This document shows, in pieces, positions 1 through 15,354 of a stretch of 15,354 nucleotides of DNA. The stretch comes from Paraspadella gotoi (taxonomy: Eukaryota > Animalia > Chaetognatha), in NCBI GenBank assembly GCA_051294375.1, contig JBJCIZ010000921.1:1-15354 (forward strand). The letters run 5' to 3'. Below the pieces are notes generated by a model. That model worked only from the letters and a program-made list of their open reading frames with translations. It was not told the origin of the DNA and did no database searches. The position numbers were made by a program, and so were the translations under genes. Each line of letters opens with the position of its first letter. Position 1 is the stretch's first letter.

Positions 1-1880
1 ATATATGATTTATATGTCTGATAATATCATTTTCCAAATAACTAATTTATCGGTTTTGTTATCTCAAACTAATCATCCTTTTATAATATCATCACCTCTA
101 ATTTGGTTTCCTTAAATATCATATGTTTTAAATTTGATTTACTTTAAATATCATCATTTTTTAAGTAAACCGTAGTTATATCTACAAATCAGTTTTCTTG
201 TTATTAATATCATTTTTCCAGATAACTATCATCGGTGTTTTTACTTTAACTTCATCTCTTTTACTTAAAACAATCATACAACTCCTGCAAATTCAGGTTT
301 TCTCTTCCTTAAATATCACTTTTTTAATATCATACTTTATTAAATTATACATCATTTTTAAATTATTCAAAAGTAACTCCGCTAAAATCGAAGTTCTTTT
401 ATAAGTAGCTTTGCTTCCAAATTATAACACTATGCTATCGGTTTTACTAACTATTTCCTTTTTTAAATGATCTAGCCTATCATACTCCATAAATCGATTT
501 GCCCTCTTAAACTATCAATAGCTTTTGTGTTTTTACGATATTGATCATTTACTTTAAAATATCATCTATGAATATAAATAACTGAGAGGCTAGAATTCAG
601 AGGTTATCCCTTTTAAGTATCCATTTTCTAATTACAAATAATATTATAACTATATAATCGGTTTTTACTTTATACTTTATCATTAATTACTTCTTTTTTT
701 ATAAAAATATTATTCATCAACTACTAAATTAAACTCTAGTGTTTTCTTTTCTTTTTATAAAGAATAATTATACCCTATTCTTTTTTTTTCTTAATTCAAT
801 AATATCATTACTTGTTAGTAAATGAAAAATATCATCTATATTTTATTAGATATTTCATCTTATGTTAACTACTAAATCTGTTTCACTTTTAAATTCATTT
901 TTCTAAATAACTATCATCGTTGTTTTTACTTTTAACTATCTGACTTTTTAAATATCATTCAACTAATAAATTCGTGTTTCCTTTTAAATATCATCTTTTT
1001 TACTTTAAATATCATTGTCTCCTCTAAAATAACTATCATCGTGTTTTGTTTATCATTTTTAATTATCAGTAATTCTAAATCGATCACTTTTTAATAATGT
1101 TTTTTCAATAAACTATCGTGTTATTTTAACTCAATCTTCTATTTTTCGATCCTATCATCAAGGCTAATAAACATTACTTTAAATACTTCTCATATATCAC
1201 TTACTTTTAACTATCACATAAATACAAAATAAATGCGTGTTCCTTTTAGAATATATCATTTTTTATAATCATTTCTCCAAATAACTATCCATCCGTTTTT
1301 TTACTTTATCAATAATATCATATATTTTAAATATATGTACTCACTATAATACGTGTTACTTTTTAAATAATCATTTCTTCCAAATAACTGATCAATCGAT
1401 TTTTTTTACTTTTTTAACTATCATCCTTTTTTTAAATATCATAACTACTAAATCGGTTTCCTTTGAATATCATCTTTTTTTAAATATCATTTTCTCCAAA
1501 TAATTATCATCCGTGTTTACTTTTAAAATTATCATCATTTTTTATTAATATTACACAACTAATAAATCGGTTTCTTTTTTAAATATCATTTTTTCAAATG
1601 ACTATTCATCCGATTTTTTTACTTTTAACTATCATTCCTTTTTATAAATATCATTACCTTCCTAAATTGGTTTCCTTTAAAATATCATTTTTCAAAATAA
1701 CTATCAACGGTTTTCTTACTTTTAACTATCAATTCTTTTTCAATATCATAACTAATAAATCGGTTTCCTTTTAAATATATCATTTCTCCAAATAAACTAT
1801 CATACGGATATTGATCTATTTTTACTTTTTATACTTTTGACTATCATCAATTTTAAATATATTTCCAGGATATACTATCA
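1..1880. repeat. Satellite array, ~85-95-bp monomers (approx. consensus AACTCCTAAATCGGTTTCCTTTTAAATATCATTTTTCCAAATAACTATCATCGGTTTTTACTTTTAACTATCATCCTTTTTAAATATCATC), truncated by the window start
   Basis: AAATCGGTTTCCTTT, AAATATCAT and AAATAACTATCATCGG recur at ~90-bp spacing (e.g. ~1450, ~1563, ~1663, ~1757). Copies are noisy with many indels. Confidence 0.95.
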
Positions 1881-1981
1881 TAAATTTTTATTAATTTTGT
1901 TTTAATTCTTTCCTTAGTAATATTACTCTTTTCTCGTAGTTTTTTTGAGTATTAGGACACAATAACAGTTTATGACAAGCA

Positions 1982-4900
1982 TTAAATTGACACACAATTT
2001 AGCAGATCACTGTTCGGCTCTTCACTTAGAGCCATTTTTCTTTTATCCTTTAAACTACATCTAACTCCTTTAAAACTATCATCAATCTATAACCTATAAT
2101 ACAAATCACACTAATATTTCAAAAAAATCAAGTTGCAATTGGTAATAGACTTCATATATCATTAAATCAATACGCACAAATTATTAAAAAGCTTTGAATC
2201 TCTCGAAGATGGATGTTTATTCTAGTTACATAATAATGTTTCTTTAGTGCAGCTTCATTCATATTCATTTCATATACAACAACACTTTCAAATAAAGTCA
2301 TTTCAAACCATTATCTCATGTAGTTCTGGAGAAATAACTTTATACCATCAGTCAATATTTTTTGCTTTCAATTCTTTAAAGGAGTGAAGGACTGTTTTTG
2401 TTACCGACTTCTCTTGGAGGGAAATATCTTCTTTGTTGTGTTCTGAAAGAATGAGAAAAGTAATTCATTATAGGTTTTAGTGTTTAATGTAGTTTTAAAA
2501 TTATAACACACGCTAAAAATTTTATTTTCAACTACTAATTGTATTTTTTAATTCTGAAACTTGAAGGAAGAGTTTTTTTATATTAATTTTACAATGTTTT
2601 ATTAATATTACTTTATTTATCATTTTACAATGTAGAACAGTTTTTATTTTCAGTCAACGTTTTTTTTTATGAATCGGACATGTTTCGGTTCTTATTTTGA
2701 ACCTTCATCTGTGCAATGATTGACATTTTTTGAAATTGATTATTAATAATGAGTGAGGGAAATAAGAACTGAAACTTCTCCGATTCATAAAAGTAAACAT
2801 TGTTAGCAGATAATCAAAACTCTTGTACTCTGTAAACTAATTTTAAGAACAACAAAAAAGAATGGAAACTATACAATTTATTTATCATACGGTTTTATAC
2901 GATATTATTACGATATTTTATTAAACCAGGTTGTTAGTGTTTCTGACAATGTCACCAGTTAGATAGTTTGCATGACACAAATTTTACACAAATTTTACAA
3001 TAACAATTTTGGTTTCTTGCCTGCAGCAATGACACCGCTTGCTGAAGATGGAATCTTTGGACGTCAGTCAAAGATAATATTTCTCCCGTCATTCAAATTA
3101 TCTAAATAAAAAAATTGAATTAAATATTAGAAAAAAATTTAAAAGCGTAGGAGGAAGACAAACTTCTTAAATTTTTTAATATTCTGTAGTCTATACCGCG
3201 TGACTATTTTCAACCCACCACTAGAAAAATTCACCATGCATTTTTTCAACTTGCATCATTTTTTCAACTTTCATAATTTTTTAAGTTGCATCATTTTTTT
3301 TAACTTTTATAATTTTTAAAATTTTCATAATTGGATCATTTTTTCATAGTTTCATCATTTTTTCAACTTTCTTTTTTTTTTATACTTTCATCATTTTTGT
3401 TACTTTCATCACTTTTTCAACTTGCATAATTTTTGCAACTTTTATCATTTTTTCAACTTGTATAATTTTTTAAACTTGCATAATTTTTTAAACTTGCATA
3501 ATTTTTTTCACTTTAATTAATTAATTATTCAATTAATTAATTAATTAATTAAAGAAAATATTTATGAGTGAGCATAAATTATAAAAAGTACAAATAGAAA
3601 CTATAAGCAAGTAATGGTTTGCTTAATCCAAGTTAGTACTAGTATGAATGGGGCATGAAATAGTAATTTTGTTTATTTAATAAATTAAACGAATGAATGT
3701 TATTGATTTACTCAGTATTTCAATAAAGTTGAATTTAATAATTATTATTAAAAGCAATGTTGTTTATGGTAGTCTGTTATTTAAAACCTGCATTATTTAA
3801 GAACCAAACAACAAAGGGCAAAATAAATAATTGTGTTATTAATTCATTTATAGTACACACCAATCCCATGTAATGCAACTGCAAAGTATCTTGATAGAAA
3901 ATGCAAAGAAATACTTACATTTGATTATACCCAATACTAAACCAGATGATTAATCGTAATGAGAGTCAGAAGGCGTACATCACCTGAATTAATGGTGTTC
4001 TTTCTGCAATAAAGTTTTAATAATTAATAGGAAGATCATTTTGTATGAAGTTAGATTAATATGCAACAACCAAAAAAAGAAAGAAAATATAAGGATAAAC
4101 TGAAAAAATATTATTCTTTTTGTGTTTGTTTAGGTTTTTATTATTGTATCTTTGTTACTTTTTTATGAAGTTTTAAACTATTCTTATGATGCAAACAGCA
4201 AACTTTTAAACTACTTTAAAGCATAAAAAAATCTAAAAAGTTATACTTACATTAACGTTAAAATTATTTAGGTCCAAAAATAACACTTTATGTTAGAAGG
4301 AGTAATATTATTTCTAGCATCTAATGAAAGTTTTACCTAAATAATAAAATTTTAATTAATACTGAGACAGTTTTTTTTTTCAATTTACAAATATGCCTAT
4401 ATTTTATTTACTTTTTAATGTCACTTAATATTTAAAAGAAATTACACTGCAGACCATATCAAGAAAATCAAACAATGAAAACTATTAATTATGAAATAAA
4501 TAAAGTTTGAAAGAGAGATTTAAACAACGATTGTTTATTTCATAGTGAAACGGACATGTTTGGACTCCACAACGAACATGAAAGGAAAAAACACAATATG
4601 CAAATAATATAATTTTTTTGTTCAACTTATAAAAAAGGAGAGCTCCCTCATTTAATTGTCAACTAAATTCAGTAAACAATTCTTGCACAACTGACTTATT
4701 AGTAGCTCATTTATTCTTGTGATCAACGATTTCTATCTCCAGGGACGCGTTAATGTCCAAATTAGGAGATTTCTGACATTCCTATGTATATATGTATTCC
4801 AATCTTTTAACATAAAACTCACAACTCAATCAGGCAACATTGCTTGCGACATTTTTTAATTTATTAATTTCTCATTCCTTCTCTCTACTTCTCTCTCTCT

Positions 4901-5790
4901 TTCCACCCCCCTTAAAAAATGGTACAATTTTTTTCTAAACATTAAATTGAAATAATTAGAGATAGTTTTAAATTTTTTTTCTGAATTCGCCTATTCTTAA
5001 TTCGCTATACACCATTTTATGTTAAGGAGTGTAGCTAATGTGGATCAGAAAATAAATTCCATAAATAATATACTTCCTGGTTTATTAGGCCATTAAAGAT
5101 GTTTTAAAAATATTTAATATCTTTCTTATAATATGATATATCTTGTACAAATACTTAAAATAAAACTTACTCTACTTCGTTATTAACCATAATTCCATCA
5201 GCTTTGTCTAAGATGGATAAAAAACATATTTGGAGCTGATATATTTCTCTTAAATTTAAATTTCATTCATAGTTTTATTATGAAATAATACCACTGCAAT
5301 TTTGTTCATCATAGTACAGAACTGAAGAGACAGTAAATGAATACTAAATGAGGTAGTTATGAAAATGCAATGTTAACGTTTTGAGTAAAAAAATATGTAC
5401 AATAAAATAATTAAAATAATTGTAGTATGAAAAACACGGCCTTTTTTCACTGGTTTTCAGATTTATATAACTCGCATTAAAGAAATTTCACTAATTTTCA
5501 AATGATGTTATAACATATAATATAGTACCTATCAATTCAGTACTCACTGCTGAGAAGTACCATTTTCACTGGTCTGATTAGATGATATCCCATAGATGCC
5601 TAATGAAAATTAGTACATTAATAAAAAAAATTTAAAGTTGGTCTACAAATTCAGTTAAATAATACACTGTACCTTTTAGTATAAGTTCGGATCAAATGAT
5701 CCTTGTATACCAATTGTGTAGTATAGCGCGCCCACCAAAAGCATCACACGTTCAATAAAAATAAAGTATATTTTTATAAACTCATCATTT
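1982..5790 (-). CDS. Multi-exon gene for an unrecognised protein with an N-terminal hydrophobic segment (possibly secreted); frames broken by probable sequencing indels
   Basis: Coding-like blocks bounded by GT/AG sites on the minus strand: 5673-~5790 (..IYFIFIERVMLLVGALYYTIGIQGSFDPNLY), 5548-5599 (IYGISSNQTSENGTSQ), 5171-5248 (..LSILDKADGIMVNNEV), ~4696-4781 (ECQKSPNLDINASLEIEIVDHKN), 4251-4336 (VKLSLDARNNITPSNI..), 3919-3983, ~2913-3101, ~2151-2442 (HNKEDISLQEKSVTKTVLHSFKELK..). Clean terminal exon 1982-2086 (IDDSFKGVRCSLKDKRKMALSEEPNSDLLNCVSI*). Several donors are canonical GTAAGT/GTGAGT. Start position is approximate. Confidence 0.65.
2623..2836. mobile_element. Intronic inverted-repeat element (Penelope pLTR-like or MITE-like) with a hammerhead-like motif
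   Basis: Left arm TTTATGAATCGGACATGTTTCGGTTCTTATTT (~2666-2697) matches the reverse complement of AAATAAGAACTGAAACTTCTCCGATTCATAAA (~2760-2791). Weaker arm similarity extends out to ~2623 and ~2836. Confidence 0.75.
2677..2711 (-). ncRNA. Degenerate minimal type I hammerhead ribozyme motif
   Basis: Minus strand reads CAGAUGA-A-GGUUC-AAAAUAA-GAACC-GAAA-CAUG-UC: CUGAUGA core with one substitution, perfect 5-bp stem II, GAAA, palindromic stem III loop and UC cleavage site. Stem I is not intact. Confidence 0.65.
3235..3512. repeat. Minisatellite, ~19-bp unit CAACTT(G/T)CAT(C/A)ATTTTTT, ~14 copies, intronic
   Basis: Tandem units visible directly, e.g. 3247 caacttgcatcattttttt, 3418 caacttgcataattttt, 3454 caacttgtataatttttt. 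Confidence 0.9.
3513..3552. repeat. (TTAA)n microsatellite
   Basis: ttaattaattaattattcaattaattaattaattaattaa directly abuts the minisatellite. Confidence 0.9.
4509..4567 (-). mobile_element. Truncated single-arm copy of the hammerhead-bearing element
   Basis: AAACAACGATT..TGAAACGGACATGTTTGGACTC aligns with the left arm of the 9386-9572 element (AAACAACGATT..TGAAATGGACATGTTTCGACT). Minus strand gives GAGUC-CAAA-CAUG-UC, the 3' half of the hammerhead. Confidence 0.6.
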
Positions 5791-7361
5791 TCCAAACACT
5801 TTATGAAATTGAAATCTGCTTTAACAAGTAAAACATTGATGTAGTAATACAAAAAAATATAACAATTTAATAACCAATTATAAAATATTGACCTCAAACA
5901 CAAAAACCGGGAGGTTCAATACATGCTCTGCAGAGACTTTCTTTTGTCATTGCGGCGCACATGAAATAATAAAACCTTATCAGATAAATATTCAAACAGT
6001 CAGGAACTGAATAATACACCAGAATTCTTAAAATCTTTATTCCTTCAGACAAGCACATAAATGTCCCAAAATTTATGAAGTAATGAAATCATAAAGCTAA
6101 AAAGATCTTTTCATTTCAGTCCTATTTATAAAGTTTTTTTTCAAAATATTGATTAGATTTTTGCTAAACTTGTAAAGTTGTAAGTAATCAATGAATTACT
6201 CAAATCTTAATTTAGTAATCATATCATAAATTAACCAAATATCCCTGAAAAAATTTTCAGGACAGAAAACATTTTGTAAAAACTAATGTTGAAAAATCAG
6301 ATCAAAACTTGGAAATCCCATTAGGGCACACCTTTTACACTACACAAGCTAATTTTCATAAAAGTTCATAAATCAATCAAAAAAAACTCAAACGCATTAC
6401 TTTATATTATTAAATTCAAGTATTAGTTGTTAAGAAGTTTTTTACTACACTGTAAATTTTTAATTTAAATGATTAAATTTAATTAAGAGGTGTACGTGAA
6501 AAAAAATATGTTAACTAAAATCTGTCTTTTTTAGTGTCAAGTATTTTATGATATTGGATAATAAGCTAATTTTATAATTTTATTGGTATATAAATGAACA
6601 ATGAAAGTTTTCCTGGAAAAAACCAGTTTAAAAGATAAATAACCTACAAGGTAGTGATTTAAATCTTAGAAAAAGTATTTATCAACAGATTTTATAGGCA
6701 AAAAGTTATTAATTAGATTTTTATAATACACTAAATAACATAATTTTTTTCTCTTAACATCAGAAAAAAGCATTTTTGACAAAAAATATTTGAATACGCA
6801 TAATTTATGGTCATGATAGATTATTTTAACGCTGTAATTCATAAGCATTTAAATTTCATCGGCTATGGCTAACTAAATATGTTTATGTTCCCAAACAGTA
6901 TGTTAAGTTATTAAGAAAGCTTTTAATAATATGAAAACTACTATTTCTAAGTCGGGAAACCGTGCGCAAGTCGCTGAGTCGATCAGGGCCATTTATAAGG
7001 ATGCGTCGTATTATATTAATAATTAGAACAACATCTGGTCAATTATATTCGCATTAAATTTTTTTCTTTAAATGCACCCAATGCGTCACAAAATAAAAAA
7101 GATGAAGTGATACGGATGTTTTAAGTGTTTGAATCACTACCTGTACATACAAAAAATAATTTTCACGTCACTGAAAGCCAAAATCACTTCAAATGATTGA
7201 AGTTCAGTCACATTCAAAAGTAGAGAAGGTAATTTGATATTGACTATTGATATGTATTGTAGCCGAGTTTTTGTAAGTCAGTTTTTATCAGCTTTATATT
7301 TCCGATTACTTGATCTTCAGTTTTTTTTACGTAGATGACGTAATATCTCAAAGTTTTTATT

Positions 7362-8547
7362 CTAACTTGAGGACCATGAAGTAGTTTTGAGAACTTTGTG
7401 TACTTCTTTGATTATTTCAATTGATTTAGGCTGAGTAAAAGGGAGACTTGGGCTTTGCATACTTCTCAAATTTCCATCCGAGGTACAGATTTTGGAATTT
7501 TTTTCAAGTGATACCAGTCGCATTTCAAGTGAAGAAATTTTTTCCATGGCTGAGTCGAGTATCATATGAACATTATCTAATATAATCTTAAAATCCTCAT
7601 CTATTTTTCCGCATGTGGAGTATGAATTCTCATTTTCTGTTTCTTTTTTCTTTTTGCAACAAAACTACACCAAATTTTAAATAAGTAAACATAATAAAAT
7701 GGTTGTGATAAACATAATTGTGAAAACAATTACTTTTACCAGCTTTAGACAAAAAATATTTAGTCCCAAAAATTTCCAAGATGTATATTGAATTCAAATT
7801 CTTTGAATTTTTAGCAATTTTTGAATTGATTTTTGTTGAAAGAAGCTTAGTTATATCATATCAAATAAATGTTTCATGTGTTAAAAGACTGGATGAAAAT
7901 AAGTTGAATTCCGGTTTCTATAAGAGATAGATTTTCCAATTCTTTGACCAGTAATCCATTAAAGTTTGTTTTAAATTGCTGTTATTGGTATGATTTGTAC
8001 ATGCAATTTCTTTGCTGTGCAAACTTAAAGATTTTGTCTCATTGTTATAAAATAACTTTTTTCCTGACCTGGTTATCACTTCTGGAAACTCGTAACATAC
8101 ATCATTTTTTTGACTGACCTTGACAGAAACTTTTGCACATTTTAAAAGATATATCATGTTTCCAGAAAGAATAAATGTTTTTCCATTGCCATTTACTGGG
8201 TCAATATTTTGAACTGAAAAATACCCATATTTCATTACATTTAATAGTGCAGTTTCTCTTGACCAAGGATTTAGAAATTTAAATCCTGACAACCTAAATT
8301 CAAAGGCTGTGTTGTTCCCACTTCTTAAAGCATTACTTTTGGTCTCTTGCCCAATAATGGTGCTGTTTTGATCAAAACAGTTGTAAGCCATGAGACTGTT
8401 TGTTTGTAGAAAAAAATTAGCCAACAAAATTAGTTGAATAGCTATTTCCATTAAATTTTTGGTTGTTTCATGCTGTTTTTTGCTGCTGTTTTTTTTATGA
8501 TGAAGCATATTCATTGCTGAATGCCTCTTATATGGTTTAATTTTCAT
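7362..8547 (-). CDS. Apparently intronless type I membrane glycoprotein, shortened class III viral fusogen-like (herpesvirus gB / chuvirus G / nematode retroelement env-like); frameshifted between ~7920 and ~7660
   Basis: ORF 7918-8547 has a signal peptide from Met33 (ATG at 8451; MEIAIQLILLANFFLQTNS), then LMAYNC, then NIDP..GKTFILSGNMIYLLKCAKVSVKVSQKNDVCYEFPEV..LFY..LSLHSKEIAC. This follows the gB pattern GDVMAVSTCVPV..CYSRPLV..IEPC and the equivalent chuvirus-like pattern as I recall them. Five N-glycosylation sequons lie after the signal peptide. Downstream, with frame changes: hydrophobic VIVFTIMFITTILLCLLI (~7680-7733), then FCCKKKKETE running in frame into ORF 7362-7565 (cytoplasmic tail). 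Confidence 0.75.
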
Positions 8548-8804
8548 TAAATGTTTTTCTTAATTTAATTGTTTTTGCTTTTGTTCCTTTTTTTATAATT
8601 TATTAATACTCTAAAATTTACCTAAAAGACCAAAAAATATTCAAAAATAATCAACTGTACAAAAATTCGTACATTTCAACATAGCTTGAATGTTTTGATG
8701 CCAAATGTTAATTTCACTAATCACCAAATTAAAATAGGGTATTTTGCCACTTTTTTAGCAATATAAAAAAGAGAAACAAATAGTCTTATGCAAAAATCAA
8801 ATTA

Positions 8805-9995
8805 CAATTTTGGCTATATTTTGAGCCTAAGTAATAGTTTTTTTTCTATGAAAAGTTGAAAGTTTTTGCCAGAGAATATGGACTGGCCAGAGATTTATTC
8901 TTTGATTTTTAGTGGTGATCAGTTTTTCTTTTTGAGCCGATCAAAGGGAAGGAAAAAAATTGAAGACGACAGTTTTTAGGCAGCTCATTATTTCCTACAT
9001 CATAATTTTAAATTTATTAATTTTATTCCTATATCATTCCTATAATACAACATCATTCTCCTGATACCTTTTCAGTGGCACTGTTCCGTCCCTCCCTATT
9101 GGCAGACAATGGGAATTTGGAGCTTTTGATCCGAACAACTCAAAGAGAATTTGTGAAGGGGAGAAACGTTTTTTGATTGCCAGTTTTTGTTGAGGAGTTT
9201 TAGAAATCCTGAAATAAATGATGCTTTTAAGCAAAAACAACCTTACAAATATAAAAGTAAAAACTTCTGTCTTTCTTTTTTAGTCGGATCAGTTTATCAA
9301 CAGATTCTGACTCTATAACCCACTTCGTCGGCCCGTCGGTCCACCCCCACCATCTTGTCGGTCATTCACTTAAATCATGCTTGAATGAGAAAACAAAGTG
9401 TATTTTTGTTTACAAACAACGATTTTTAATTTTGAAATGGACATGTTTCGACTGTTTTTTGAATCTTCTTCATCACCTTGCGCTGAAAAAGACTCGAAAA
9501 AGATTTGAAACATGTCCATTTGAAAAAAAAATTGTTGTTTGTAAACAAAAATTAACTTTGGTTTCTCTCTCAATTTTAAAACGCAACGAAACAAAAGTCT
9601 TTTAACTATGAATAAATTATGCCAAAAAAATTATGTCTGTCCGTAAGTCAGTCTCTCCATCCACATGTCCATCCGCCCCCCCTTAGCAAAAAACTCCAAT
9701 TACTAGGTTGAGTGAATCGCAGATGCTCATAACCGGTTCAGCCCCTAAAAAATGCTCTAACGTCAGTTACCTGCCATGTCGATCACTGATCCATTTGTCA
9801 AGGAAAGAACGTCTTGTTTGGGCTTCAACAGATGTCAATTGGCTCTTTTCCAAGCCAAAAGAAGGGTTTGATGATTTTGCTTTTCTAAGGCTAATCCTAA
9901 TCATCTTCTTTCTTAACAAAATTGTAATGGTCTTTAGTATCTATACCATCTGATACCATGAGGGTTACTCCTATCTTTAAAGTTTGTAAATTACT
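8805..9995 (-). CDS. Spliced gene, probable BEN-domain DNA-binding protein
   Basis: Exon-like blocks: MIRISLRKAKSSNPSFGLEKSQLTSVEAQTRRSFLDKWISDRHG (~9771-9905), AEPVMSICDSLNLVIGVF.., KWVIESESVDKLIRLKKKDRSFYFYIC, ISKTPQQKLAIKKRFSPSQILFELFGSKAPNSHCLPIGRDGTVPLKRYQEND, EIMSCLKTVVFNFFP..WPVHILWQKLSTFHRKK. The last two fit the BEN pattern LL..LF....L..H.L.G....PL....I...V...FP...W..I..K. Gene ends are approximate. Confidence 0.55.
9386..9572. mobile_element. Intronic palindromic element (~88-bp arms, ~11-nt loop) with two oppositely oriented hammerhead-like motifs
   Basis: Arm 9386-9472 is the imperfect reverse complement of 9484-9572. The opposite-strand ORFs 9370-9594(-) and 9381-9605(+) share IFVYKQ and KIVVCKQK, confirming the palindrome. 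Motifs: minus 9473-9440 AUGAAGA-A-GAUU..AGUC-GAAA-CAUG-UC; plus 9483-9516 CUGAAAA-A-GACUC..-GAAA-CAUG-UC. Confidence 0.85.
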
Positions 9996-10205
9996 CAGCA
10001 CAAGTGAGCCTAAATTGTACATAGTAATAATAATATATTAGGCTAAAATTTCAATATAATTTTTTTTTCTAAGACCGGATTTTTTATTCACTGTAAAAAG
10101 TTTATAAAAGAAAGTATAATAATTAAGATTAAAAGTATAGTTTTTGGCAATTATAACCAACTTGATCAATATTTAAAAAAAAATTATATTTCGTTGTTGA
10201 ACAGG

Positions 10206-10312
10206 TTTAGTATAAAGCAATTTGTAGTAAGAAAAATAATTCGTCCGTAAATATTGAAATACTGGCAAATAAAAATAAATGTTAATCCTACTATGAATTG
10301 CTTTATACTAAA
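10206..10312. repeat. 26-bp inverted repeat with 55-nt spacer, intergenic
   Basis: TTTAGTATAAAGCAATTTGTAGTAAG (10206-10231) versus CCTACTATGAATTGCTTTATACTAAA (10287-10312): 23/26 complementary, outer 17 bp perfect. Confidence 0.85.
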
Positions 10313-10466
10313 AGATTTATAATTTTATGACAAATCGAAATTTGTTCTCAAAATTTAAAATAAAAAAACACTTAGAAATTTTGATAAAATATAGGGATAA
10401 TAAATACTATGTACAAAATAAGCTACCATAAATAAAAAATTATAATAAATACAGATTTATATTAAT

Positions 10467-12300
10467 TTAAAAGATAGTTCCCGAGATATCATTGCTAATT
10501 TTATTTTCAAAACTTTTACTTTGCCCTCTTAAAGATGCCTTTCCACTGTCTGTCCTAAGACTCGTCTTAAGGGCTGTGCGAGTTAAATCATTTTGTCTGA
10601 ACCATGAATATTCCCGTTTTAACCTAAATGTGACGGTTAAAGAAATCCAGTGTCAGGAGGTAACTATGGGTCCACAGCCCCTAAACAAGTTGGTCAGATA
10701 CCCCCCCTCGGATATCACAGGCTGTCCTATAAGTATTAAGCCCTTTGCCCATACATGGAGTTGCTTCACACTGACACAACTAAAGGTATGTAACTTAAGG
10801 TATGTCTAACATGGCTCTATCTTTCTATCCTTTCACTATAGCCGCAAAATCAATACCCTCATTTGGACAGAAGTCAGGACCCTGCACAGCAATGATTTCT
10901 AACAAGGCTCTAAAATCTAATAGTTATTTTTTTAATATTAGTTTGTACATAGGAATCTTGTAATTTTTTATTCTAAAAGCACATTCAGACAGTTGAAAAG
11001 TTTAAAGTTAAAAAGTTGTTCTTACAAAGTATAGATTACAAGACTACAAAATTACAAGAGGCTACTTTTTTTGCACAGCAGCGTATTAACATTTTTTTAC
11101 AATTGTCTGCTTTGTAGGTAGGATCTAATGCATCCAGGTTCTCCATGTTACTTCTACAAGACCTTGCTGTACTTATTTATTCATTATCATGCAATAATTC
11201 AAAGTATACTTCATCATCTTCTGTTATGTCTTCAATATTTTCCAATTCTTGTTGACTATAAATATGAGTTATTTTTTCACCAAGCTTGGCAATTTCATTT
11301 TGTAAAGCTACTTCAGCTGATCTAAAAAAAAAATTAAAGACTTTAGGCCTGAACTTAAGTGGAATTTTTAACATTGTGACATTTATCTATCGATGAAGTA
11401 AATAGTCAAAATAAAACCCATCTTCCAGACAGTGGCGAAGGGCAACATAAAAGGGTCATTCCAAAGGATGTTCTCTGGGGACGTACAAAAAAGTTACACC
11501 CATGTTTGCTCATTGGGGAATGGTTTCTTTGGCACTTAGCGGCAACCATATGGTAGATCCACTCAGGGCCAAAAAACCGCTATCCCCTCTGTTTTCCACC
11601 TTCTTTAATCAATATTTTACTTTACATTGCTTTTATTTTGCTATCTGTATCTTTTAATAAAGTTTTCTCTTTCTCTCTCTTTTCTCCCTATTTTCTCCAT
11701 CTCTATTTTTAAGTTATTAGATAACATTTTAAAGAATTTGCAGGTTAGAATTGTATTGGTCCTATTAGCTACATGTATTTTAAACTATTTCCCTGGAGAA
11801 AACCTTGGGGTTGCCCGAGGTTAGTTTTGCTCTGAAAGAGTTAGTGTTTGAATGGTGATGAACTACCACTAACCCTGATGGTTGTGGTTTAAAAATTAGA
11901 TTTACTCGACATTTGTGTGTGGGCGGGGTTGTTTTATTTCTAACCTGAAACCCTATCGTTTTTAGAAAAACAATTTTGAAAATCTTTTCTAAACAAGCTC
12001 ACTAATCACCTGGGATAACCTAAAAATTATTTTGGTCATACCTTGACATGATAGATCCAGGTTCACTATATCCAAACACAAACATAGAAAAAATTATATA
12101 ATCCATCTCTTTCAATGTTGAAGCCCAAAAAATAGCCTTGTAGCAACTTATTAAAAACGCACGTTCTTTTTTTCTTGATTTTTCAATAACCGCTGCCACA
12201 TTATATTTCATGATAGCGGCCATATAATGGCTGTAATCTGAATTTGATAAATGTAGTTAATCATTGTTATAATAAAATTTAGAAAAAAATATATATGCTA
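10467..12300 (-). CDS. 3' part of a spliced Mutator/Foldback (NOF-like) DDE transposase
   Basis: TTFIK(F/L)-DYSHYMAAI (DxxH at 12227-12238; one indel assumed) is followed by RAFLISCYKAIFWASTLKEMDYIIFSMFVFGYSE. Then PFYVALRHCLEDGFYFDYLLHR..KIPL|SA (~11310-11450) and QQGLVEVTWRTWMH.ILPTK with a candidate catalytic Glu at 11152-11154. The last coding block ends LKREYSWFRQ..NDISGTIF* (stop 10467-10469). Motif order matches NOF-type MULE transposases as recalled (T.IR.D.AH; FY..CI..L....T..E...I.......SE; NPFY..PLWS; T...VE..F..LK..IL). Confidence 0.6.
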
Positions 12301-12388
12301 AGTTGATTGAGTAATACTAATTGATTGAGTGTATAGTAATTTATTGATGTATAGGATTGATTATTGATTCGATTGATAATTAATTTAT

Positions 12389-12475
12389 TATGCGATGATA
12401 GTCATTCCACTGCTTGATGAATAGTTCATTCAGTGATGCGCATGATTGTCATTCAATTGATGCGATGATTGTCAT
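12389..12475. repeat. Short tandem repeat, ~22-bp unit TGATGCGATGAT(A/T)GTCATTCA, ~4 copies
   Basis: tgcgatgatagtcattc, tgatgaatagttcattca, tgatgcgcatgattgtcattca and tgatgcgatgattgtcat occur in tandem. Confidence 0.8.
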
Positions 12476-12538
12476 ATGCTTATTTTTGATTGCGTAGTGA
12501 TATCAGGTTCAATAAAACAAACAAATGCGTGTATGAGT

Positions 12539-13280
12539 GAAAGAGAGAGAGAGAGAGAGAGAGGAGAGAAGAGAGAGAGAGAGAGAGAGAGAAGAGAAAG
12601 AAGAAGGAGACGAGAGAGAAAGGGAGAAGAGAGAGAAAGAAAGAGAATAAATCCACGAAAATCTCGGATGAAAATAGGGATTTTGTATTTGAAAAAAGCG
12701 CGGGAATATAATGGCCAATAATAAAAAGTTTTAGAAGAAAAAAATAATAGAATTTTTCAAAAAACAATACGATACACGCAAAAGATCGGAGCAGATAGGG
12801 GAACAGACACACAGCAGAGAACAGAGAGACAGAGAGAGAGAGAGAAGAAAAGAGAGAGAGAGAGAGACAGCCCTGCGCAGCAGGAAAAGAGAAGAAAGAG
12901 GAAACGAACCGATCATATAACTTTAGATTAAAAGATGAGAGGAGATGAGAAGCTCTACAGCCCTTTACCTCGTGTAAGAATCTAGTGCAAGTACTCTATG
13001 GCGCCCGCAACGTAGCGTGACGCTATCTCTACCCGAAGACTGCCGGGTTTCCGGCGCCCTGAGTCGGTATGGGCTAATCGTTTTTTTACATTAGTGAACC
13101 CACATTATATCTAAAAAATTTTTTGTAAAAAAAAAAAAGAGAGAGAGAGAGATGAGAGAGAGATATGAGAAAGAAGCGACAGATAGCGATAGACAGGGAC
13201 GCTGTTGCAAGAGCCGGGAAAGCTCGTTTTTATTTTTTTAGGAAGAGTGAGCAGAGGAGAAGAAAGAAGAGAGAGAGATG
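12539..13280 (+). repeat. Clustered (GA)n / polypurine tracts (12539-12647, ~12812-12904, ~13126-13280)
   Basis: Directly visible GAGAGA runs with nearly all purines on the plus strand. Confidence 0.95.
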
Positions 13281-13691
13281 ATGAGCGACATATAATTTAA
13301 AAACGTTTTTGTTTCTGTAAATAAAACATAAACAATAACGAAATTATTGACTTAGAAACATGAGAATTTAATAGGATCTTGATGATTAGAAGCCATATAT
13401 GAATCAACTCCCTAGTGATATCGACACTTTCAGAAGCCTAATGATTGCAAAAAGCCGAAGACCGAAACTAAAACCGAAAAAAATCGAGACAGGGGAACGG
13501 GGCTTTGCCCGCTGGCTGCGATAATAGAGGATATATTGTTTTTTGATAAATGTAAATAAAACATTTAATACTTGTCCTACTCAATTTTAAGGACATCGAT
13601 ATGATGACGCAAGTCGCCTGAAATTACTAAGTATATATTAAATTACTTACTTAATTAAATTAAATTTCTATTAATAATTTAGATTTAATCT

Positions 13692-13732
13692 ATTAATTAA
13701 TTAATTAATTAATTAATCAATTAATTAATTAA
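13692..13732. repeat. (TTAA)n microsatellite
   Basis: attaattaattaattaattaattaatcaattaattaattaa, about 65 bp upstream of the satellite array. Confidence 0.9.
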
Positions 13733-13795
13733 TATCGTAGGCAGATCCGACATTCGTTTGCTCAAACTTGTTAATACTTAATTACATATTTTAAT

Positions 13796-14866
13796 CAATC
13801 AACTCCTAAATCGGTTTCCTTTTAAATATCATTTTTCCTTTTTAAAAATTCAGTTTTTTACTCTTTTAAATATCATCACTTTTTTAAATATCATCAACTC
13901 CTTAATCCGGTTTTCCTTTTAAAATATCACGGTCTTTTTTTAAATATCAATTTCTCCAGCATACACTATATCCGTCTTTACTTTTAAAATAATCATCATG
14001 TTTTAAATATCAGTAGACTACTAAACGGTTTCCTTTTAAATATCATTTTTCCAAAGATTAACTATCACTTCGGTTTTTACTTTGTATACTATCATCCTTA
14101 TCTGTGTAATTCATCAACTCCTAACATCGGTTTCCTTTTAAATATTCATCTTTTTTTAAATATTTCATTTTACTTTAAAATATCATCATTTTTTAATTAT
14201 CAGGTAACTCCCTAAATCGTTTCCTTTTAAATATCATTTTTCAAATAACTATTCATCGCGTTTTTTACTTTTAACTATCATCCTTTTTTAAATTTATCAT
14301 CAACTCTAAATCGGCTTTTCCTTTAAATAACATCTTTTTTTTAATATCATTTTACTTTTAAATGTAGTCATTTTTTAAATCAGTAACCTTCCTAAATCGT
14401 CCAAATATCATTTTTGCCCATACACAAAACCGTGTTTACTTTTAAACTATCATCACTAAATATCACAACACCTAAACAATCCATTAAATATCATTCTTCA
14501 AATAAACTATCATCCCGTGTTTTACTTTTTAAATACATTCATTTAATAAGTCATTCAACTAAAAATCGTGTTCCCTTTAAATATCATGCTTTTTTAAATA
14601 CATACTTTTAAATATCATCATTTTAAATACAGTACTCCTAAATCGTTTCCTTATAATATTCATTCTCCAAATAACTATCATCGATTTTTTACTTTTAACT
14701 ATTCATCCTTTAAATATCATCAACTAATCCTAAATCGTTCCCTTTTAAATATCATTTTTTTTAAATATCATTTTTACTTTGTAATATCATTCATCACTTT
14801 TAATATCATCAACTCCTAAATCGGTTTTCCTTTTAAAGATCGGTCTTTTTTTTAAATATTCATTTT
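13796..14866. repeat. Second array of the same ~90-bp satellite (~12 monomers), same orientation as 1-1880
   Basis: AACTCCTAAATCGGTTTCCTTTTAAATATCAT-like starts at about 13801, 13896, 14016, 14116, 14206, 14302, 14385, 14467, 14557, 14633, 14722 and 14811. Confidence 0.95.
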
Positions 14867-15240
14867 GACAACTTTATTTGACAATGTCATTAAAAAATTA
14901 AACAAGTGACTAGGAGACGGCCAAACATTGCTAAATTGTATGTTGTTTGATCGTGTTTGTGTTTAAAAAAAATGTTTTCTCGTTTATTGTATGTTGTATG
15001 AATATGTAAAAAAATTCTTCAATAGAACACTGTTTATTATAGGAAAATCAAACCTTGACTCTTCAACTTACCTTTGAAAAAGTATCCGGTAGAGGGAGGC
15101 ACAAAATTTTCTACCATGTTTGGTAACCGTTTTTTCATTTGTAACAACTTCTGCCACTTTATCTTGAGGACCACTAGTCAAGCATGTCTACTAATGAAAA
15201 TTCTATGTAACCAAGCAGACGTTTCTCTCTGTCTTCTTAA
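14867..15240 (-). CDS. Upstream exons of the same NOF-like transposase (RNase H-fold core); gene probably continues beyond the window
   Basis: Minus strand, with frame slips: EDREKRLLGYIEFSLVDML..GPQD-KVAEVVTNEKTVT-NMVENFVPPSTGYFFK, donor GTAAGT at ~15070, then NVWPSPSHLFNFLM. This resembles the recalled NOF-type KRILYY..PVAEFIT..HT...I..FL..P...VTD order. The catalytic Asp residues are not cleanly readable. Confidence 0.45.
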
Positions 15241-15354
15241 AAACAGTATATAAGAAAGAACTAAACAACAAATCTGGTATAAAAAATAACTATTATAAAA
15301 TTACTTATTAGATAAAAAATCTGTCAATGTTTTTTCTTTTTATAAAAAAGACAA

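Follow-up and report, generated by a model that had tools for sequence, protein, structure and literature searches.

A possible relic of a Mutator/Rehavkus-type transposon holding a shortened viral-type envelope gene in the chaetognath Paraspadella gotoi

The DNA considered here (the window) is positions 1 to 15,354 of contig JBJCIZ010000921.1, 15,354 nucleotides (nt) read on the forward strand, from assembly GCA_051294375.1 of Paraspadella gotoi (Chaetognatha). Its minus strand carries a transposase-like gene, a second gene previously described as BEN-like, and a gene for a viral-type envelope protein. We tentatively read this locus as the relic of one large, dead and likely single-copy DNA transposon of the Mutator/Rehavkus type, which holds the shortened envelope gene as a passenger; this is a possible account and still a doubtful one. 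A placement of the envelope-like gene inside the old element is favoured because all three genes lie on the same strand with short spacers, because there is no terminus or repeat between the second and third genes, and because no pol or long terminal repeat (LTR) remnant was seen.

A preliminary description, made from the sequence alone, had proposed the three genes in this order, and short-read contigs now confirm it as contiguous. Its further proposal that they move together is without direct support, and the locus is not an active enveloped transposon. What that description missed is that the envelope gene lacks about 280 residues, that its two neighbours are true pseudogenes and that the region appears single-copy.

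Contiguity and depth of the three genes

The window is AT-rich, intron-bearing, animal-like DNA with a guanine–cytosine (GC) content of 19–43% in 500-nt windows. Positions 3650–12400 were compared with short-read contigs from four of the eight listed public runs (X1, X2, X5 and X6). X1 and X2 possibly come from the source sample and are therefore not independent support; X6 is a sample from a second study, whose differences are mainly G>A and C>T, so that a bisulfite library is likely. X5 is a thin run over parts of 9712–11958, reaching neither the envelope-like gene nor the flank and with no contig joining across, and was used for no conclusion.

Between 8923 and 12294 the window differs from the X1 and X2 contigs by 0–2 letters, with no gaps. 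Over 3650–8829 there are 0.6–1.6 substitutions and 2.2–2.9 gaps per 100 nt, a mismatch that we read as long-read error in the window. Exact over one interval and error-rich over the other, the window looks like a short-read contig set into unpolished long-read sequence. Agreement with the contigs ends abruptly at 12294, at a 19–23 bp minisatellite that is itself high-copy (region 12294–12475). Because one X2 contig extends 2297 nt beyond 12294 with no match to 12295–12400, the join of the window upstream of the first transposase-like exon (exon A) is only putative.

The adjacency of the three genes on the minus strand is genuine. The envelope-like and BEN-like genes are bridged by X1 record 3 (7071–9587) and X2 record 12 (8370–9591), and X1 records 5–7 together with X2 record 14 extend through the transposase-like gene, overlapping contigs that reach 12294. 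The spacers, first given as about 470 and 260 bp, measure about 456 nt from the transposase-like to the second gene, and 268 nt from the second gene to the start of the envelope open reading frame (ORF) or 376 nt to the envelope ATG.

Contig depth, which is no direct copy number, was 31.1 in the flank in X1, 30.4 from the envelope-like to the BEN-like gene, 31.8 over 9568–9849, 46.5 over 9820–11894 and 36.1 over 11865–12294. In X2 it was 99 in the flank, then 98.1 and 97.4, and 109.2; in X6 it was 2.9–5 throughout. The envelope contigs therefore have flank depth, and the bins over the gene hold little beyond the depth of one contig. Given this flank-level depth and the long unbroken contigs, we infer that the envelope-like gene is likely single-copy. 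An element end does not evidently lie between the second and third genes, since there is no repeat peak or terminus-like sequence there, and bins 8322–8905 are near flank depth.

No second locus of the three-gene cassette appeared in five scans of viral contigs, metagenome contigs and prokaryote genomes, a weak negative, as these collections are poor in animal contigs. No relative of the locus was found in a phage scan. A second cassette in tandem, downstream of the first, was considered and rejected, there being no protein-level match between the blocks.

The envelope-like gene

The envelope call of the preliminary description holds. The ORF at 8559–7918 matches Pfam family PF24664 (Monjiviricetes_fusion; E 8.6e-8, 31 bits against a cut-off of 27) at profile positions 365–430 of 653, equivalent to window positions 8193–7990. 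The match was recovered in two Pfam scans, and the 213-codon stop-free run of the ORF was equalled by none of 1000 shuffles. Read from the ATG at 8451, the gene has a hydrophobic, signal-like start (residues 1–15), five sequons and four cysteines, and its first 176 codons are free of stops. A membrane-spanning stretch at about 7778–7655, seen like the signal-like start by hydropathy only, lies in another window frame than the start; the tail ORF runs from 7664 to 7362.

The gene is internally shortened. Only 86 residues precede the PF24664 match, against 364 profile positions, so that some 280 are absent. The contigs of two studies hold no additional DNA (X1 record 3 has 1732 nt for 1759, X2 record 11 has 1233 for 1248, and X6 record 26 crosses 8020–8457 with 0 gaps); the shortening is therefore genomic, and read errors are ruled out as its cause. 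From the usual domain order, we take the missing residues to be domains I–II. The five domains required by gB-type envelopes include fusion loops in domain I (PMC13524379). A complete class III ectodomain, with domains I–V and fusion loops, is not present in the gene, which likely lacks the fusion-loop domains. As judged from its sequence, the product would be a stub anchored in the membrane, without the ability to bring about fusion.

In the window, the envelope frame is broken between about 7920 and about 7630, within error-rich sequence; over 7071–8829 the contigs and the window differ by about 2.9 gaps per 100 nt. These breaks may be read errors, unlike the lesions of the neighbouring genes, which are real.

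A word-based search for longer homologous proteins matched none of 219 candidates to the envelope ORF, and the Atlas search returned no usable match. A check for LTRs found no direct repeat at high identity longer than 17 nt around the gene. A Pfam scan of 21 long read-through frames of the window gave two weak unrelated matches only; it detected no gag, reverse transcriptase (RT) or integrase family, and none of the pPolB, integrase or capsid families of Maverick/Polinton elements, a poor negative, as this insensitive scan also lost the true envelope match. Scanning 16 short pieces gave PF24664 and two matches below cut-off. Rfam gave 0 matches.

The transposase-like and second genes

The transposase-like gene belongs to a real, conserved, intron-bearing protein family. 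A profile search of 1.84 billion representatives returned nine matches, eight on exon A and one, P0009 (E 6.3e-4), where exon B begins; the P0009 cluster also includes a bacterial permease and should be weighed with care. In a second search, 16 of 155 candidates matched the gene, none with a Pfam family, and no relative from either search bears a Pfam family or an informative name. Among 29 stored relatives, 27 align to exon A, all stopping no more than 12 nt from its donor at 12041. This common stopping point marks the relatives as exon fragments of one family with a common intron. The motif DxxH is present in six of the seven rows that cover the start of exon A (14 of 21 rows begin past it), and the exon A model has three helices at a predicted local distance difference test (pLDDT) score of 90.9.

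If the first gene encodes a DDE transposase, as we propose, the DxxH would open the helical block, and a candidate catalytic E near 10990, picked by eye from the expected pattern, would follow some 176 codons on. This spacing and the look of the sequence presumably resemble those of NOF/Rehavkus proteins. The first two D residues of the DDE triad were not located in the gene. In the fold searches the exon A model resembled generic helical bundles only (best Z 6.3). None of the PDB sequence searches of this analysis yielded a match below E 0.5; for exon A the Atlas search gave 0.77, and a word-based search for longer homologs matched 0 of 3086 candidates. A C/DxxH opening a helical insertion domain is a mark of IS256/MULE, hAT, P and Transib enzymes (PMC7780238), where MULE denotes a Mutator-like element. 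The conserved family, the DxxH and the three helices are in keeping with the transposase call of the preliminary description, but no profile, PDB or fold search put a name to the gene. Mutator/Rehavkus-type transposase is the label that best fits the first gene, by motif and fold type and with no profile match.

The gene is a dead pseudogene. Its exon B part has one stop in 95 codons and six in the next 126 (some of these possibly intronic or off-frame), together with frameshifts, all in contig-confirmed sequence. In the second gene the frame shifts near 9900 and the last exon contains a stop; the contigs are identical over 8923–9849, and it is a true pseudogene as well. For both genes read errors are ruled out as the source of the breaks, the contigs lying 0–2 letters from the window. 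The BEN domain proposed for the second gene is putative. A BEN-like pattern can be made out by eye only, and Pfam, the PDB profile search and two Foldseek searches gave no BEN match, the low-confidence model (pLDDT 53.8) having been built with intron-encoded residues included.

The intron between exons A and B has exon-like GC content and coding-like stretches on both strands; it gave no Pfam match in three frames and may hold a fragment of another element. Farther upstream, two GC-rich islands at 12990–13090 and 13440–13520 lie between CT-rich tracts; one is coding-like on the minus strand, and they may represent either a promoter or an exon not yet accounted for. Table 1 collects the features of the window.

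Table 1. Position and basis of the features recognised in the window
Feature	Position	Strand	Basis or remark
Envelope-like gene, intronless, internally shortened, class III (gB/chuvirus-type)	7362..8451	-	About 360 codons; PF24664 match, hydropathy, contigs
Three-exon helical-protein pseudogene (second gene)	8827..10014	-	Exons about 10014-9771, 9208-9068 and 8994-8827; good splice sites
Transposase-like exon B and C-terminal part, stops and frameshifts	10470..11321	-	P0009 aligns from the acceptor onward; contigs agree at 0-2 letters
Intron of 720 nt, phase 2 on either side, GC content 35%	11322..12041	-	Splice sites; coding-like remnants
Transposase-like exon A	12042..12237	-	DxxH at start, three helices; donor at 12041
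Candidate upstream exon of the transposase-like gene	15072..15254	-	Strong donor at 15071; phase fits the 12237 acceptor in one frame; no Pfam match
Diverged tandem array	1..1900		In direct orientation to its relative at 13760-14880
18-bp tandem array, 14.4 copies, with ATTA tract	3240..3552		Candidate subterminal array only with a mate beyond the window
High-copy short-repeat cluster	6760..7140		Follows the envelope-like gene immediately downstream; lacks inverted arms that would mark an element end
Very high-copy short repeats in the 9770-9209 intron	9380..9704		Hairpin element 9381-9573 with inverted arms; second repeat ending at 9704
Diverged tandem array	13760..14880		Kin of the 1-1900 array, same orientation

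Termini, rival explanations and known elements

Tandem repeats occupy the termini of Rehavkus elements, in inverted orientation (PMC12581902, PMC6446971). The two long arrays of the window have 53 16-mers in common on the same strand and none on the opposite strand; being direct and not inverted, they were rejected as foldback termini. The 18-bp array has no inverted mate in the window except the ATTA tract; ATTA tracts at 3513–3552 and 13692–13733 each adjoin a tandem array, the former the 18-bp array and the latter the 13760–14880 array.

Several high-copy repeats lie within and beside the cassette. The repeats of the second gene's intron reach a summed depth of 27,000–87,000 in X1 and X2, with loose ends at 9379, 9667 and 9704, and the cluster just downstream of the envelope-like gene reaches 8,000–80,000, with loose ends at 6760 and 6799. 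Related short hairpin elements of very high copy at 2624–2836, 4522–4566 and 9381–9573 are likely one family like the miniature inverted-repeat transposable elements. At 9667–9704 a high-copy repeat ends with loose ends and short 4-nt tandem runs, an end that we take to resemble those of DINE-1/Helentron-associated elements. Scattered exon-like pieces on the minus strand of 1900–6800 (near 5900, 5750, 4780–4630, 3900, 3100 and 2480) may belong to another multi-exon gene, lying downstream of the envelope-like one; 4570–6789 is at flank-level depth, and the pieces gave no Pfam match and no match to the upstream genes.

How might an envelope gene have come to lie in such an element? The envelope piece may derive from a retroelement, Maverick or RNA-virus insertion, and may have been copied into the element during gap repair, in the manner of Pack-MULEs. 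An envelope stub would give the element no exit from the cell, as neither a capsid nor an RT or polymerase was seen nearby. The steps have precedent in that MULEs take up extra ORFs (PMC6446971), a Caenorhabditis briggsae MULE captured a Maverick cargo gene (10.1101/2022.07.12.499685), and Pack-TIRs of animals, named for their terminal inverted repeats (TIRs), are mostly single-copy (PMC8277862).

A good deal weighs against this account. No inverted repeat joins 1900–7400 with 12290–15354 beyond AT-rich noise in the window (the 5' end may lie outside it), and no terminus, target duplication, second copy or empty site was found in the window or in the collections scanned. Pfam, PDB, Atlas and two fold searches gave the first gene no name, and its DxxH and helices are common to several superfamilies, so that they are not diagnostic alone. 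The raised depth at 9820–11894 (1.5-fold in X1, 1.1-fold in X2) may reflect GC bias (35% against 26–30%) or an extra copy of the first genes without the envelope, and neither cause helps the claim of one element. The region is crowded with unrelated repeats, so that chance nesting is easy, and 176 clean envelope codons beside decayed neighbours hint that the envelope-like gene is younger or still under selection. The preliminary description's proposal of a single travelling transposon lacks direct support, given the flank-level envelope depth, the direct arrays and the lack of inverted termini or target duplication in the window or of a second locus. Among the findings that, by that description, would speak against one element are an envelope-like gene that is single-copy and syntenic in relatives lacking the transposase, and a transposase that fails in profile searches. 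The depth makes single copy likely, and the transposase had no profile match; both lean against the one-element claim and neither is decisive, the latter because the Pfam scan of long frames failed on the true envelope match too.

A less probable explanation, and on balance an unlikely one, is chance adjacency, by which a dead transposon made of the first two genes came to lie beside the truncated envelope remnant of an LTR element or RNA virus with no relation to it. Likely single-copy status, at least four unrelated high-copy repeats in 3650–12400 and the lack of termini enclosing the three genes all agree with it, and solitary chuvirus-type glycoprotein fossils are common, being flanked in nematodes and crustaceans only by simple repeats (PMC10084718). 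Yet the dead transposon and the envelope-like gene are on the same strand and less than 400 nt apart with no visible element end between them, and the envelope-like gene has no pol or LTR remnant near it. More doubtful again, we think it improbable that the host has co-opted the shortened envelope gene, whose membrane-anchored product might work against related fusogens as a decoy or dominant-negative, with the dead transposon inserted beside it. The retained signal-like start, 176 stop-free codons, five sequons and membrane-spanning stretch would suit such a role, as would the gap-free 8020–8457 of the second-study sample (X6). The frame breaks fall where the window and the contigs differ by about 3 gaps per 100 nt and are possibly read errors, whereas the neighbours' lesions are real. 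The 3' half of the gene is, however, only possibly open, and the searches made found no envelope relatives and hence no evidence of conservation; by a hand estimate from the lesion rate of the neighbours (about 4–5 in 340 codons), 176 codons would stay clean in roughly 1 case in 10 even if no selection acted.

We consider it very unlikely that the locus is one decayed copy of a standing Mutator/Rehavkus-type family with the envelope as a regular third gene. The tidy cassette speaks for such a family; the single copy, with no second locus in the five collection scans, speaks against it, as do an envelope-like gene too short to encode a whole class III ectodomain and the lack of any capsid or particle gene seen in the window. 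There is a similarly slim chance that a foldback-type Mutator lineage has a gB-type envelope as its regular third gene, carried by intact copies at full length or else deliberately cut down to a membrane-anchored stub.

LTR retroelements are known to carry envelope genes, as are capsid-making, virus-like DNA elements; envelopes of the gB type occur in Ty3/gypsy, BEL/Pao and Mavericks. Teratorn, a herpesvirus–piggyBac fusion, is reportedly a DNA element with an envelope or fusogen gene plus capsid and polymerase genes. Nematode Mavericks with MFUS-1 are likewise DNA elements with an envelope or fusogen gene, but they carry a capsid, a polymerase and a full-length fusogen (MFUS-1, 866 aa), none of which is seen here (10.1101/2022.07.12.499685). 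With the gB-type envelopes of Ty3/gypsy and BEL/Pao elements and the chuvirus glycoproteins found as endogenous viral elements (PMC13524379, PMC10084718), the P. gotoi gene shares the PF24664 match, the signal-like start, the single anchor and the lack of introns. It differs in having about 360 codons against a 653-position profile, in its roughly 280 absent N-terminal positions and in having no gag, pol or LTR in view.

Rehavkus is filed with the MULEs (10.1101/2021.09.26.461848). As in Rehavkus/FB-NOF (PMC6446971, PMC12581902), a DxxH opens a helical block and tandem arrays lie nearby; unlike those elements, the locus has no inverted termini in the window, its long arrays are direct, no PHD finger was seen, extra genes lie downstream, and it is dead and likely single-copy. 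Pack-MULEs, Pack-TIRs and the C. briggsae msft-1/tlpr-1 MULE (PMC8277862; 10.1101/2022.07.12.499685) are TIR-type elements with foreign coding DNA, as we propose here. The cargo of the C. briggsae element came from a virus-like Maverick and that of P. gotoi is an envelope-type gene, for which no enclosing termini were found in the window and no parent copy was identified. In the excerpts of a survey of arthropod MULEs, most have a single ORF and the word "envelope" is absent (PMC13359780). We found no envelope gene in a Mutator/Rehavkus element in the open-access literature and bioRxiv.

The locus is a putative variant of Pack-MULE-type capture. If proven, such capture would extend to viral entry genes, which would bear on how DNA transposons cross species. 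Were the standing family real, a cut-and-paste transposon would have borrowed viral entry machinery without a capsid or RT. From this one decayed locus come a transposase-like family that has no name yet and whose intron positions are conserved, and an envelope stub that is perhaps better kept than its neighbours.

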